Assembly: GCA_021831125.1 (NCBI GenBank)
Contig: JAKBNI010000001.1
Location: 13,659 to 77,658 of the forward strand
DNA: 64,000 nucleotides
Direction of reading: 5' to 3'
DNA from: Actinomycetes bacterium
GTDB lineage: Bacteria; Actinomycetota; Acidimicrobiia; Acidimicrobiales; RAAP-2
This document shows, piece by piece, positions 13,531 to 41,185 of this stretch (the first letter of the stretch is position 1; every line of letters starts with the position of its first letter). A model generated the notes under the pieces. It had not been told where the DNA came from and did not search any database. It was given only the letters and a program-made list of their open reading frames with translations. Both the position numbers and the translations under genes were made by a program.

Positions 13531-13617
13531 GTCGGAGTGGCGGAATAGGCAGACGCGCCAGCTTGAGGGGCTGGTGCCCGAAAGGGCGTGTGGGTTCAAG
13601 TCCCGTCTCCGACACCA
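13531..13617 (+). tRNA. tRNA-Leu (anticodon GAG)
   Basis: Acceptor GTCGGAG/CTCCGAC-A-CCA; anticodon arm CCAGC-TTGAGGG-GCTGG; long variable arm GCCC-GAAA-GGGC; GGTTCAAGTCC T-loop. Confidence 0.97.
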
Positions 13618-13619
13618 GA

Positions 13620-13650
13620 TTGTACGAAAGTAAGGCTCATGTTGTACAAT
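13620..13650 (+). promoter_or_regulatory. TA operon promoter/operator (TTGTAC ... TTGTACAA palindrome overlapping -10 TACAAT)
   Basis: TTGTAC at 13620 and TTGTACAA at 13642-13649; TGTACA cores are known YefM-family operators; TACAAT lies 6 nt before ATG 13657. Confidence 0.6.
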
Positions 13651-13656
13651 ATTGGC

Positions 13657-13905
13657 ATGAGCAGAATCTCCGTCAGCAAGGCGCGCGACAGGCTCTCAGA
13701 AGTCGTAGAGATGTCTCGATCCGAGCCCGTCGTTCTGGAGCATTACGGTCGCGCGGCCGCAGTGGTGGTGAGCCCGGACCGCTACGACGAGATGCTTGAA
13801 GCGTATGAAGAGTCGCTAGACGTAGAGGCGTTTGACGCTGCACTATCCGAAGAGGGGGAAAACATCCCCTGGGAGCAGGTGAAGATCGATCTCGGCTGGT
13901 CGTGA
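13657..13905 (+). CDS. type II antitoxin, Phd/YefM family
   Basis: ISVSKARDRLSEVV...EPVVLEHYGRAAAVVVS; acidic C-terminus; coupled to the toxin gene. Confidence 0.92.
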   Translation: MSRISVSKARDRLSEVVEMSRSEPVVLEHYGRAAAVVVSPDRYDEMLEAYEESLDVEAFDAALSEEGENIPWEQVKIDLGWS

Positions 13906-14159
13906 GTGAGTATCGAATTGAATTTAGACCGGCAGCTTTGCGCGAGATTCGAAGAATCGACCGGTCCGCTCAGCCGCGTATTCAAGGCGCGATCGCACTT
14001 CTCGCGCACGATCCTCGCCCGCCCGCGTCTCGCCCGCTTCGTGGACGTCCCGGTTACCGTCTACGAGTTGGCGACTACCGCGTCATCTACACCATTGACG
14101 ACGGGATCCTTCTGATTGTTGTCGTCACAATCGGACACCGACGCGACGTCTACCAGTAG
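13902..14159 (+). CDS. type II toxin, RelE/ParE family
   Basis: YRIEF...PRP...YRLRVGDYRVIY...IGHRRDVY. Confidence 0.93.
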   Translation: MSEYRIEFRPAALREIRRIDRSAQPRIQGAIALLAHDPRPPASRPLRGRPGYRLRVGDYRVIYTIDDGILLIVVVTIGHRRDVYQ

Positions 14160-14194
14160 TCAGTTGCGCATATCTGGTTGCTTCCACGTGCAAG

Positions 14195-14377
14195 CGCCAA
14201 TGTGCGGTAGCGGATCCGTTGCTTCGAGTCTCCGACACCAACACTTCACCGCATGAGCCGCTAGTGTGCGGTAGCGGAGTCGTCTTGACCCGTCTCCGAC
14301 ACCAACAACGCCGAGTCATCCTGCGAGACGCCAGTGACATGTAGCGGACCCGTTAACTCGTGTCTCCGACACCAACA
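14195..14377 (+). repeat. three tandem 49-bp degenerate repeats ending in the tRNA-Leu 3' end (14195-14243, 14259-14307, 14329-14377)
   Basis: Consensus CGCYARTG-N4-GTAGCGGA-N13-GTCTCCGACACCAACA; spacers 15 and 21 nt. Confidence 0.9.
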
Positions 14378-14479
14378 GGTTGCGGTCCCATTGAAGTCAT
14401 CAAAGTACCTGAGCGGGGTCGTCGTCTCACTCGACAAGGTGCGGGATGCAGGCACGTTCACCGATGCGAGGATGCGTTC

Positions 14480-15004
14480 GTGCAGAGTGAGAACCTCCGG
14501 GACGAGTTCGGACTCGAGACGGATCGCTTGCTGCTCAGACCTTGGCGGATGTCAGAGGGTGTCATCTTGCGCGAGATATGGTCGGAGCGCGATCCACGGG
14601 TGCCGCCGCACCGCCGCATCGACGCGCTCGGCAACCCCACGGTGGCACACCTGGAAAGGGAGATAATCGCCTATAAGCCCGCGTCGGTCGGACTGCTTGC
14701 TGTCGAGCTGAAAGAGACCGGGCGCGTCATCGGCTACAGCGGTCTAATTGACAGCGGGCGCGGAGCGCGCGAGCCGGAACTAGCGTATGAGTTGTTGCGT
14801 CGGCATTGGGGTCGCGGATACGCGACGGAAGCCTCGTGGGCAATACTGAACTGGGCGAGATCGTCACGATACGAGCGTCTTTGGGCCACCGTCTGGGACT
14901 GGAATGCAGGCACACGCCGAGTGCTCGCGAAGATCGGGTTTGTCGAAGTGGGTTTCGAGATGACGACTCACGGGACCAACATCGTGACCACGAAGTTCCT
15001 GTGA
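14480..15004 (+). CDS. GNAT N-acetyltransferase, RimJ/RimL family
   Basis: LETDRLLLRPW, ELAYELLRRHWGRGYATEA, RVLAKIGF; start uncertain. Confidence 0.88.
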   Translation: MQSENLRDEFGLETDRLLLRPWRMSEGVILREIWSERDPRVPPHRRIDALGNPTVAHLEREIIAYKPASVGLLAVELKETGRVIGYSGLIDSGRGAREPELAYELLRRHWGRGYATEASWAILNWARSSRYERLWATVWDWNAGTRRVLAKIGFVEVGFEMTTHGTNIVTTKFL

Positions 15005-15061
15005 CCCTGGCCATTCGTTCACACGTCCGTCGTGAGGTCGGGTCAGTTTGCCGGCGCGAGC

Positions 15062-15179
15062 CTCCAATGCCCGGTAGCAGACTCGTCTTGAACCTTCTCC
15101 GACAGTAACAACCCGAGTCATCCTGAGAGCCGCCAGTGACTGTTAGCGGACCCGTCTACTCGCGCCTCCGACACCAGCA
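15062..15179 (+). repeat. two further 49-bp repeat copies (15062-15110, 15131-15179)
   Basis: Same consensus; spacer ACCCGAGTCATCCTGAGAGC matches the 14308-14328 spacer, so block 14259-14377 is duplicated here. Confidence 0.85.
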
Positions 15180-15568
15180 CCAGTCGTTCAAGTCATGACC
15201 TGTCCTTGCGTGTAACCAGTTGGCTCTGGCCGCGATACGCACGCGTGAACTCGATGTGGCAACTCATGTGGGCGCCGGGCCCGACAGTGCGACGCGGCTC
15301 GGTCAGATGTGGCGACACCACCGTTCCGCAGTGGGGAGCCTCGAAGTGGGGGCCAGTGTCGCGCGTCGTCTCGTGGCTCGCCGTCTCCCCGGGGACGTTC
15401 GAAGGAGGAAGCTCTCGCTTGGGGGTGAGAGCGAAGTCCCCCGCGTCGCCCGAGGGTGGCGGCAGCTCTCCATCGTCCAGTGAACCCTCTCACGAGCAGC
15501 GTGCGTCTGCCGGGACGTCAGCACAGTGATTCACTGTGGAGAGACCCATGCTTTCCGGGAGGGGCGGT

Positions 15569-16345
15569 GTGACGGCATTCCAGGTTGACCGACACTGGTA
15601 CGGCGCTGACGCTTCTCAGTACGCGGAGCTCTATCGCCCCCACGGGCGAGCAAGGCACACGGTGGTCGTGCTCTTCCACGGAGGCTTCTGGCGATCGGCC
15701 TACGGCGCGGACCACCTCGCGGGTGTCGCGGCGGACCTGGCAGGGCGGGGCTGGGTGGTGTGGAACGCGGAGTACCGACGGGTGGGCAACGGCGGCGGGG
15801 CGAGTGAGACGCTCGCCGACGCGTCGGCGGCCGTCGACGCCCTGGCCGAGGTCGCGGAGACGCGCGCCCGGCGGGTCGTCGTGGTCGGCCACAGCGCCGG
15901 AGGCCATCTAGCGACCTGGGTGGCCGGTCGGGGCGCCGCGGCCCGTGCGGGACTCGGGCCGGCGCCGCGAGTGGAGGTGGAGGCCGTCGTGAGCCTGGCC
16001 GGCGTCCTCGACCTGACCAGGGCCGCCACGGAAGCCATCGGCGAAGGTGCGACCGTCTCTTTCATGGGCGGTCCGCCGGAGGACCTCCCCGACCTCTACA
16101 CACTCGCGGACCCTCTCGCACGGATCCCGATCGACGCGGTCGTGCGATGCGTGCACGCGAGGTCCGACCAACGGGTGCCCTTCGCCCAGAGCGAGACGTA
16201 CGTGACCCTCGCCCGAGCGGCCGGAATGGACGCGACGCTCATCGAGGCGACGGGCGATCACTTCTCCGTGGTGGACACGGCCGCCGCGGACTGGTCGGTG
16301 GTCCTGGAGGTCCTGGAGGGTCTCTCCGCGGCATCCAACTCGTGA
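15569..16345 (+). CDS. alpha/beta hydrolase (esterase/lipase-like)
   Basis: HGGFW oxyanion motif, GHSAGG nucleophile elbow, DQRVP, GDHF; start uncertain (15536-15569). Confidence 0.9.
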   Translation: MTAFQVDRHWYGADASQYAELYRPHGRARHTVVVLFHGGFWRSAYGADHLAGVAADLAGRGWVVWNAEYRRVGNGGGASETLADASAAVDALAEVAETRARRVVVVGHSAGGHLATWVAGRGAAARAGLGPAPRVEVEAVVSLAGVLDLTRAATEAIGEGATVSFMGGPPEDLPDLYTLADPLARIPIDAVVRCVHARSDQRVPFAQSETYVTLARAAGMDATLIEATGDHFSVVDTAAADWSVVLEVLEGLSAASNS

Positions 16346-40299: not shown

Positions 40300-41185
40300 G
40301 CCCCTGGAGGAGTACCTGCAGTGGCTGGCCGTGGAACGGGGTCGCTCGCGCGCCACCCTCGAGGCCTACCGGCGCGACCTGCGCCGGCTCGTCGAGTGGG
40401 CCACGGAGCGGGGCCGCGACCCCCTCGCCCTCGGGGCCGAGGAGATCGAGCGCTACGCCAACGCGCTGCGCTCGGCCCAGGCGGCCGCGAGCGTCGCGCG
40501 CGCCCTCACCGCGATCCGGGGCTGGTACGGCTTCCTCGTCGACGAGCGGGTCCTGGCCGAGGACCCGACGGCCCGGCTGGCCCCGTCGCGCCGGGGCCGG
40601 AGCCTGCCCAAACCCCTCTCGGAGGAGGCGGTCGTCGCCATCATCGAGGGCGTGCCCGACGACGGGCCCCTCGGCCGGCGCGACCGGGCCCTGCTCGAGA
40701 CCCTCTACGGCACCGGGGCGCGCGTGAGCGAGGTGTGCGGGATCGACCTCGCCGACCTCGACCTCGACGAGGAGGTGATCAGGGTCACCGGCAAGGGCAA
40801 CAAGCAACGCCTGGTGCCGGTGGGCCGGAGCCTGCGCCGGGCCCTCGACGGGTACCTGGCGCCCGGGGGACGCTCGTCGCTGCTCGCGCAGCGGCGCACC
40901 GACCGGCTCTTCTTGAACGCCCGGGGCGAGCCGCTCAGTCGTCAGGGGGTGGACCTGGTGGTCCGACGCCGGGCGCTGGCCGCGGGGGTGCCGACGCGCG
41001 GCGTGAGCGCCCACGCCTTTCGGCACAGTTGCGCCACCCATATGCTCGCCCACGGCGCCGACGTGCGCACCGTCCAGGAGCTCCTCGGCCACGCCTCAAT
41101 CGCGACGACCCAGGTCTACACGGCCGTCGCCGTCACCACGCTCCAGCGCGAGTACCGTGAAGCGCACCCCCGAGCCCACGACTGA
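40289..41185 (+). CDS. xerD: tyrosine recombinase XerD
   Basis: LYGTGARVSE, GKGNKQR, HAFRHS, LLGHAS..TTQVY; pyrG-nudix-xerD synteny. Confidence 0.9.

Follow-up and report, generated by a model that had tools for sequence, protein, structure and literature searches.

We analysed a window of 64,000 nt on contig C49 of the metagenome-assembled genome (MAG) G000, an assembly of 2.0 Mb in 139 contigs that is 87% complete. The element of interest is a short array that follows a tRNA-Leu(GAG) gene on the same strand, and in which five copies of a repeat delimit a toxin-antitoxin (TA) module and a gene for a GNAT acetyltransferase (Table 1). An original prediction, made from the letters of the window, had described five repeats of equal length at positions 14195, 14259, 14329, 15062 and 15131. 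All of them are present, and they form one family, with 69–80% identity over 55 nt. In the window, the two-arm pattern proposed for the repeats matches four times when up to three mismatches are allowed (0.00 expected, from 100 shuffles), and in a scan of the genome the fifth copy, R4, also matched it, at 3 mismatches. The 16 nt at the end of the tRNA gene (13602–13617) recur exactly in the second copy (14289–14304), and ARAGORN, Rfam and Pfam agree on the order tRNA, TA module, R1-R2-R3, GNAT, R4-R5. The arms of the repeat had also been described as loosely complementary; this is real, but the complementarity is weak and is not the symmetry that matters, which is described below. Genome-wide, the copies in G000 are confined to C49:27839–28838, i.e., to the tRNA-Leu locus.

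We call the repeat a site, and the stretch that ends in a site a cassette. The unit at 14308–14377 recurs at 15111–15179 (an 85% repeat family) and also stands first behind the tRNA in G001, the nearest relative for which this analysis had data. On a larger scale, R2, spacer and R3 on the one hand and R4, spacer and R5 on the other are two copies of one unit of ~120 nt, 82% identical. The GC content of the array (13618–15179) is 59.5%, compared with 72–73% in the flanking genes (72% in the hydrolase gene at 15536–16345) and 72.6% in the genome of G000. Two palindromic TTGTAC(A/G)A boxes lie 5’ of the antitoxin start (13620–13650) and are kept at the left end of every copy of the TA cassette; they are probably an autoregulated operator/promoter that enables the cassette to express itself. 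The window holds a small, degenerate array without a recombinase of its own, and its value is confirmatory. By analogy with integrons it can be seen as an orphan array, comparable to a CALIN (an integron cassette array without an integrase); the absence of an integrase noted in the original prediction holds for G000 as assembled, at the completeness given above.

Table 1. Coordinates of the tRNA gene, the cassettes and their genes in the window.
Feature	Position (nt)	Strand	Evidence or remark
tRNA-Leu(GAG)	13531..13617	+	ARAGORN; Rfam RF00005, 49.2 bits; heads the array
Proposed crossover dinucleotide TC in tRNA-Leu(GAG)	13606-13607	+	predicted from the palindrome centre and the tRNA/site base match
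Cassette 1, Phd/YefM-ParE toxin-antitoxin unit, ends in site R1	13618..14243	+	
Phd/YefM-family antitoxin gene	13657..13905	+	PF02604, E 4e-10
ParE/RelE-family toxin gene	13902..14159	+	PF05016, E 2e-13
Site R1, putative attR-type: cassette-borne P arm and tRNA-derived 3’ end	14191..14243	+	58.4 bits
“Empty cassette”: 15-nt spacer and site R2 (16-nt exact copy of the tRNA end)	14244..14307	+	62.9 bits
“Empty cassette”: 21-nt spacer and site R3	14308..14377	+	64.9 bits
GNAT acetyltransferase cassette, ends in site R4	14378..15110	+	R4 at 15058-15110; 57.3 bits
GNAT open reading frame (Acetyltransf_3)	open 14360-15004; likely GTG start 14480	+	PF13302, E 2e-21; domain from residue 56 of the long frame
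“Empty cassette”: 20-nt spacer and site R5, last site of the array	15111..15179	+	64.9 bits

Sites and cassettes across the genus

Using a sequence-only model built from the five window copies, a search of relatives that the original prediction had proposed was run on 151 genomes sampled from the genus. The site was found in 98 of them, clustered on one strand; single genomes yielded up to 33 or more scored copies, and arrays reach 21 or more sites per 14 kb. For a detailed map we used 166 sites from 21 sources, that is, the window and 20 fetched loci of relatives, the hosts of which are MAGs of Acidimicrobiaceae/Acidimicrobiales from soil and peat according to their contig titles. All sites were co-oriented within each locus, and in 12 of the 20 fetched loci the gene at the head of the array, on that strand too, is tRNA-Leu(GAG). 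Compared with the window copies, the consensus of the genus is far sharper: an abrupt boundary 47 nt upstream of ...CCGACAC marks where conservation sets in, it ceases directly behind that motif, and in 79 full sites we detected no conservation to the right of ...GACAC. In L064, L069, L074, L079 and L082 the tRNA-Leu(GAG) gene does not encode CCA, the bases past ...GACAC being those of the first cassette, so that CCA must be added post-transcriptionally. Scanning IMG/VR with the site pattern gave 0 matches, and we found no published account of an Acidimicrobiaceae cassette system in the literature.

The 158 intervals between sites have a bimodal length distribution, with 20 of 12–56 nt, 126 of 60–2000 nt and 12 longer than 2 kb. 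The median of all intervals of at least 60 nt is 748 nt, and most of these contain one open reading frame (ORF). In 88 single-gene cassettes the ORF lies on the strand of the sites in 43 cases and on the opposite strand in 45. Median GC at third codon positions is 0.63 in cassettes, against 0.85–0.95 in core genes. The cargo is extremely diverse: clustering of the 238 cassette ORFs gave 203 groups, of which 183 have a single member. Those sampled include parts of TA systems (PIN, Phd, ParE), GNATs, proteins of glyoxalase/bleomycin-resistance type, APH-type and chloramphenicol-phosphotransferase-like kinases, an epimerase, and RibD_C, DUF4232 and DUF998 proteins, together with many proteins without a family. 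One long interval of G137 contains an insertion sequence-type transposase (rve core with a Mu-transposase C-terminal domain; L064:16612–18150).

Comparing all segments against each other, we found the same cassettes in different genomes and at different array positions, with homology extending from the first bases past one site to the end of the next. The TA cassette of the window (13618–14241) matches the second cassette of G137 (L064) along its entire length at 87% identity, and copies at other array positions in L066, L068, L065 (two copies) and L074 at 75–86%; the genomes with these further copies are G057, G097, G155 and G064 (twice). Homology between the TA cassettes begins just past ...GACAC(CA) and stops at the end of the site. 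The two copies in G064 (L065) are 97% identical and share an identical downstream site, while their upstream sites differ; the whole 47-nt site must therefore travel with the cassette on its left. A crossover midway along the site, within the CAGAyCTG palindrome, was considered and rejected, since these two copies differ in the right halves of their upstream sites and are identical across the whole of their downstream sites.

The comparison of G000 with G001 provides a local case. In G001 the unit that stands after R2 in the window directly adjoins the tRNA end, so that positions 13618–14304 of the window correspond to an indel flanked by the 16-nt direct repeat. The GNAT cassette is not present in G001, which has another gene set after the shared site. 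Judged from sequence, the pair neatly illustrates how a cassette is gained or lost at the 16-nt repeat. Comparing cargo across strains had been suggested in the original prediction, and the two genomes do differ in the cassettes between their sites. Neither a fixed gene content in relatives nor, in G000, a dispersed repeat of the miniature inverted-repeat transposable element (MITE) or repetitive extragenic palindrome (REP) type, two outcomes that the prediction had set against itself, was found. What it had called an integron-like, tRNA-targeted system of cassette accretion is supported by the comparative data in that variable cargo lies between conserved sites and the same cassettes occur in different contexts; its recombinase acting in trans is a point of interpretation, to which we return.

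Site anatomy and the associated large serine recombinases

Several arrays of relatives encode large serine recombinases (LSRs), proteins of 472–492 aa with Resolvase, Recombinase and Zn_ribbon_recom domains; those of L065, L075 and L072 match PF00239, PF07508 and PF13408. The catalytic columns R8/S10 and D77-R78..R81 are invariant in 13 LSR sequences. LSR relatives were found in 48 of the 151 genomes of the genus (a tally that includes one unpublished genome, G151, on which no other result depends), and belong to clade A, with 60–100% identity to the query, or clade B, with 41–48%. Their position is characteristic. Of 30 fetched genus loci, 17 have an LSR gene that converges on tRNA-Leu(GAG) and overlaps it with its 3’ end; among the remaining 13, the gene adjoins either a full site or a half-site resembling the tRNA in 12. 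In a separate set of 32 loci from other Acidimicrobiales MAGs, it adjoins the tRNA in 16. In relatives, the LSR gene has its stop codon within the tRNA 3’ end or within a site. LSR-bearing units end in the same normal P-type site (defined below) as all other cassettes, and fragments of LSR genes persist in arrays of genomes without an intact one. For the recombinase that the original prediction had postulated, the LSRs, physically tied to the tRNA and to site ends in relatives, are the candidate family.

We also sought a second recurrent recombinase among the 238 cassette ORFs and found none, as only LSRs and their fragments recur. Tyrosine recombinases (PF00589) were absent in and beside every array examined; in G000, G137, G064, G006 and G049 all of them are at least 27 kb from the tRNA. 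The window does contain an Xer-like tyrosine recombinase gene (~40616–41131, + strand; PF00589, 144.8 bits), and its synteny downstream of tRNA-Leu is kept in G137, G064, G006 and G049. Its distance to the tRNA varies from 27 to 58 kb and may track the size of the array; no link to the sites was seen.

The site consists of a cassette-borne arm of ~38 nt (the P arm) and the last ~9–11 nt of the tRNA (CTCCGACAC...). The inner 24 nt of the arm form the P half-site, left of |CTCC. In LSR-bearing elements, P’ lies across the tRNA end from the P half-site and is formed by the end of the LSR gene. Over these 24 nt we compared the P half-site with P’ as reverse complement: in clade A, 17 of 24 positions agree, a match reached by 0 of 20000 shuffles, and in clade B 14 of 24 agree, reached by 69 of 20000. 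P|P’, that is, site plus LSR gene end, forms an imperfect palindrome of ~48 bp centred on GT|CT, the predicted crossover, at the junction of acceptor and T stem. The attP sites of serine integrases of the Bxb1 and phiC31 type have this size and form, and by analogy with them P|P’ is best described as a typical LSR attP.

The base just left of the centre, T or C, is that of the resident tRNA in every locus. Three genomes of the C type have C sites only (6/6, 7/7 and 5/5), even though the same cassette families carry T in T-type genomes. Since the base of the site always equals that of the resident tRNA, the exchange can be placed at or left of the central base. The match is what a matching central dinucleotide would require, and cleavage would then take place there. 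In these terms, the sequences suggest that the ordinary repeats are attR-type joints, made of a P arm and a tRNA-derived end, and that the tRNA represents the attB/attL side. We looked for a conserved left-end (P’) motif in ordinary cassettes and found none; the P’ arm is present only in LSR-bearing units.

A tandem amplification was observed in two loci: the 12-nt core CGTCTCCGACAC is repeated five or more times directly after a site in G137 (L064:13596–13700), and threefold in L074 around 11055. It could result from slippage or from aberrant recombination at the crossover region.

A partial, tRNA-like half-site precedes LSR genes or arrays located away from the tRNA in L090, L096, L097, L104, L105, L108, L110, L111 and at L066:4644–4667. 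Such half-sites are hybrid, the outer part copying the T arm of the tRNA and the inner part fitting the consensus of the cassette site (GGGTTCA-CGTCGG...), and may be secondary landing sites. A scan of IMG/VR with the LSR profile identified three predicted viral contigs, L194 (16 kb), L195 and L196, with clade-B-like LSRs (46–48% identity) whose 3’ ends adjoin partial tRNA-Leu-like sequence. L194 also weakly matches a large terminase (E 6e-7) and strongly matches one PHROG, whose function is unknown, and the LSR family may derive from temperate phages.

Proposed mechanism and rival explanations

Taking these comparisons together, we consider it likely that the repeats are attR-type sites of small gene cassettes integrated by LSRs at the 3’ end of tRNA-Leu(GAG). 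The TA and GNAT cassettes of the window, like most cassettes of relatives, have no recombinase gene and lie between P-type sites of the same kind as the right ends of LSR elements; such small cassettes are non-autonomous at best. A route by accretion would require canonical LSR reactions only. An LSR element at the tRNA would have a canonical attL, and any P-type site downstream could serve as its attR, or right end. Excision by the LSR would then carry off a variable number of neighbouring cassettes, a form of mobilisation in cis; if the element re-integrated at another tRNA-Leu and its next excision used a nearer site, cassettes would be deposited there. Over repeated rounds, a co-oriented stack of cassettes would build up behind the tRNA and would outlast the LSR element. 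Insertion of cassette circles in trans is a possible further route. Accretion would lead to co-orientation of the sites, to the lack of a P’ arm in ordinary cassettes and to arrays without a resident LSR, such as those of G000, G001, G084 and G097.

Several observations weigh against LSR-mediated integration. No serine recombinase domain (PF00239) was found in G000, which is 87% complete, or G001, nor in G084 or G097, the two genomes with most sites; LSR action in trans or in the past must therefore be assumed for these four. Without a P’ arm in the cassettes, the canonical attP exists only in LSR-bearing elements, and for a single cassette to be captured, one and a half half-sites would have to suffice for recognition. 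The LSR half-site accounts for only 24 of the 38 conserved nt of the arm. The “empty cassettes” (the 20 intervals of 12–56 nt; empty units of ~65–70 bp) are too small to circularise. The window sites stray from the genus consensus, with 28–48 nhmmer bits compared with the typical 50–60, and may, by their sequence, be inactive. Finally, all the evidence is comparative and comes from MAGs, in which relatives are non-independent samples.

Some of these points fit a stack of fossil tandem islands, in which each site would be the attR scar of a once autonomous element that has lost its recombinase and most genes, the cassettes having never been mobile singly and nothing moving now. The four genomes without an LSR, the LSR fragments in arrays and the degenerate window sites are all in its favour, and it resembles the tandem decay described for tycheposon islands and for the ssrA islands of Dehalococcoides. 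We nevertheless regard it as unlikely, because cassettes of ~0.6–0.8 kb recur with identical boundaries in different genomes and positions, including the two 97% identical copies within one array, and because one-gene units dominate the interval sizes: independent decay would not trim dozens of elements to one gene and one site. Decay may still describe the present state of the window array, the sites of which fall below the genus norm.

The site could also be imagined as a folded, single-stranded substrate of a tyrosine recombinase, which would make the system a true integron analogue with attC-like sites, or as a substrate of Xer. Three short hairpins can be drawn from the consensus, a few paired positions vary jointly (e.g., GTAGCA/TGTTGC versus GTGGCA/TGTCAC), and there is the syntenic Xer-like gene downstream. 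On 150 copies, however, 78.9% of positions are paired compared with 78.1% in shuffles, and 5 double-change pairs are seen where 6.4 are expected; fold z-scores are ordinary, no R’’/R’ core motifs are present and, as reported above, PF00589 is missing from the examined arrays and their vicinity. The hairpins are better explained as the inverted half-site motifs of a double-stranded LSR site, and we hold this explanation to be very improbable.

Still less credit is due to a role at the RNA level, raised in the original prediction, in which RNase P or RNase Z would cut tRNA-end mimics bearing CCA on a read-through transcript and so free mRNAs or small RNAs. Every site does end like the 3’ strand of a tRNA acceptor, and all are in the tRNA sense. 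This reading nonetheless conflicts with the near-equal use of both strands by cassette genes and with the frequent lack of an encoded CCA after ...GACAC in relatives, and the symmetry partner of the site lies in the end of the LSR gene. Rfam at permissive thresholds recognised only the tRNA. RNAalifold gave -5 kcal/mol for the five window copies, with no compensatory pairs, and single copies folded with z-scores between -1.6 and +0.7 on the sense strand, one antisense copy being exceptional; there is thus no excess of fold stability, and covariation is weak. A three-hairpin RNA model was dropped, being barely above shuffles on the 150 copies. A dispersed MITE/REP-type repeat that is clustered by chance is the least credible explanation of all: some relatives do have sites on several contigs, but the copies of G000 are all at one locus, sites are co-oriented per locus and punctuate gene-sized units, and no terminal inverted repeats or target duplications are present.

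If LSRs do integrate these cassettes, a bolder reading is possible, which we advance tentatively and with less than even confidence: soil Acidimicrobiaceae would own a functional equivalent of the integron, made from unrelated parts. An LSR would capture and release single-gene cassettes at tRNA-Leu(GAG), recognising only the half-site and the 9-nt tRNA end, with the outer 14 nt as an accessory or directionality element, and the arrays would be an actively shuffled gene bank and not a deposit of hitch-hikers. To our knowledge, integrons are unreported in Actinomycetota, and the integron-like gene banks that we know of are almost only those with IntI tyrosine recombinases, mostly in Proteobacteria. 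Here, uncultured Actinomycetota of soil and peat show an integron architecture (one anchor, dozens of extremely diverse one-gene cassettes, TA and detoxification-type cargo, orphan arrays) that is linked to a serine recombinase and a tRNA gene. If this holds, cassette platforms have evolved convergently, and the system would account for a hypervariable locus in an abundant soil lineage. The system may also offer a compact pair of LSR and att site, with a defined 48-bp site and a natural landing pad in a tRNA.

Comparison with known systems

Judged by its published description, and not by a comparison of LSR sequences, the closest published system is that of the Dehalococcoides ssrA islands and their LSR DsiB (McMurdie et al. 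2011, PMC3146451), with SCCmec as the other LSR analogue. There too, islands stand in tandem behind a tRNA-like gene, and a direct repeat of the 3’ end of this gene, with an adjacent conserved motif, bounds each island; the DsiB gene, which overlaps the repeat, is on the reverse strand beside attL, integration falls within the T-loop/T-arm region, and some islands have no integration module and were discussed as mobilisable in cis (PMC3146451). The differences are that the Dehalococcoides target is ssrA (tmRNA), that the islands are multi-gene and carry rdh operons, with about a dozen repeats per genome, and that the integration module has six genes, including a second, small recombinase (PMC3146451). 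The present system, in contrast, uses tRNA-Leu(GAG) and has mostly single-gene units of ~0.75 kb, a site of ~47 nt and cargo of the TA, GNAT, glyoxalase and kinase-like types.

In the staphylococcal cassette chromosome (SCC, including SCCmec), short repeated integration-site sequences stand between cassettes, and some cassettes rely on a recombinase encoded nearby. The target is a protein gene, rlmH (orfX), unlike here, and the cassettes are of 3–60 kb with repeats of ~15–20 bp. The likeness is that LSRs (CcrAB/CcrC) build up a stack of cassettes where a single conserved gene ends at its 3’ side (described in part in, e.g., PMC11470126). The LSR families differ, as PDB and Pfam matches show generic serine-recombinase similarity only.

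Cis-mobilisable elements (CIMEs), which take part in accretion-mobilisation with integrative and conjugative or integrative and mobilisable elements, are similar in being att-flanked units without a recombinase of their own, stacked by successive integrations at a tRNA or another att site; they are, however, few and multi-gene, and do not form long one-gene arrays with a 47-nt site. In the tycheposon islands of Prochlorococcus, partial copies of tRNAs mark the joints as they do here, but tycheposons are mostly autonomous, 910 of 937 having tyrosine recombinases, carry replication genes as well, and number one or two per genome (bioRxiv 10.1101/2020.12.28.424599). Like CIMEs, they lack such long one-gene arrays.

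Integrons and CALINs share with these arrays the single anchor, the co-oriented succession of mostly single-gene, diverse cassettes of foreign composition with a site at the 3’ end, cargo of the toxin-antitoxin, acetyltransferase and glyoxalase/bleomycin-resistance types, and the commonness of orphan arrays without a recombinase. In contrast to them, there is no IntI tyrosine recombinase, and the sites are conserved as sequence, without the hairpin signature of attC. Nor are the cassette ORFs co-oriented with a common promoter as in integrons; a tRNA gene acts as the anchor, and the enzyme associated with the arrays is a serine recombinase. Integrons and CALINs are a functional analogue, and on every test of membership the arrays fall outside them. 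Among the cargo, cassettes with APH-type, chloramphenicol-phosphotransferase-like or glyoxalase/bleomycin-resistance folds were observed at L065:11899–12648, L068:9125–9745, L064:14316–14666, L066:10969–11484 and L068:6332–7066; this antibiotic-modification-like cargo resembles that of environmental integrons.

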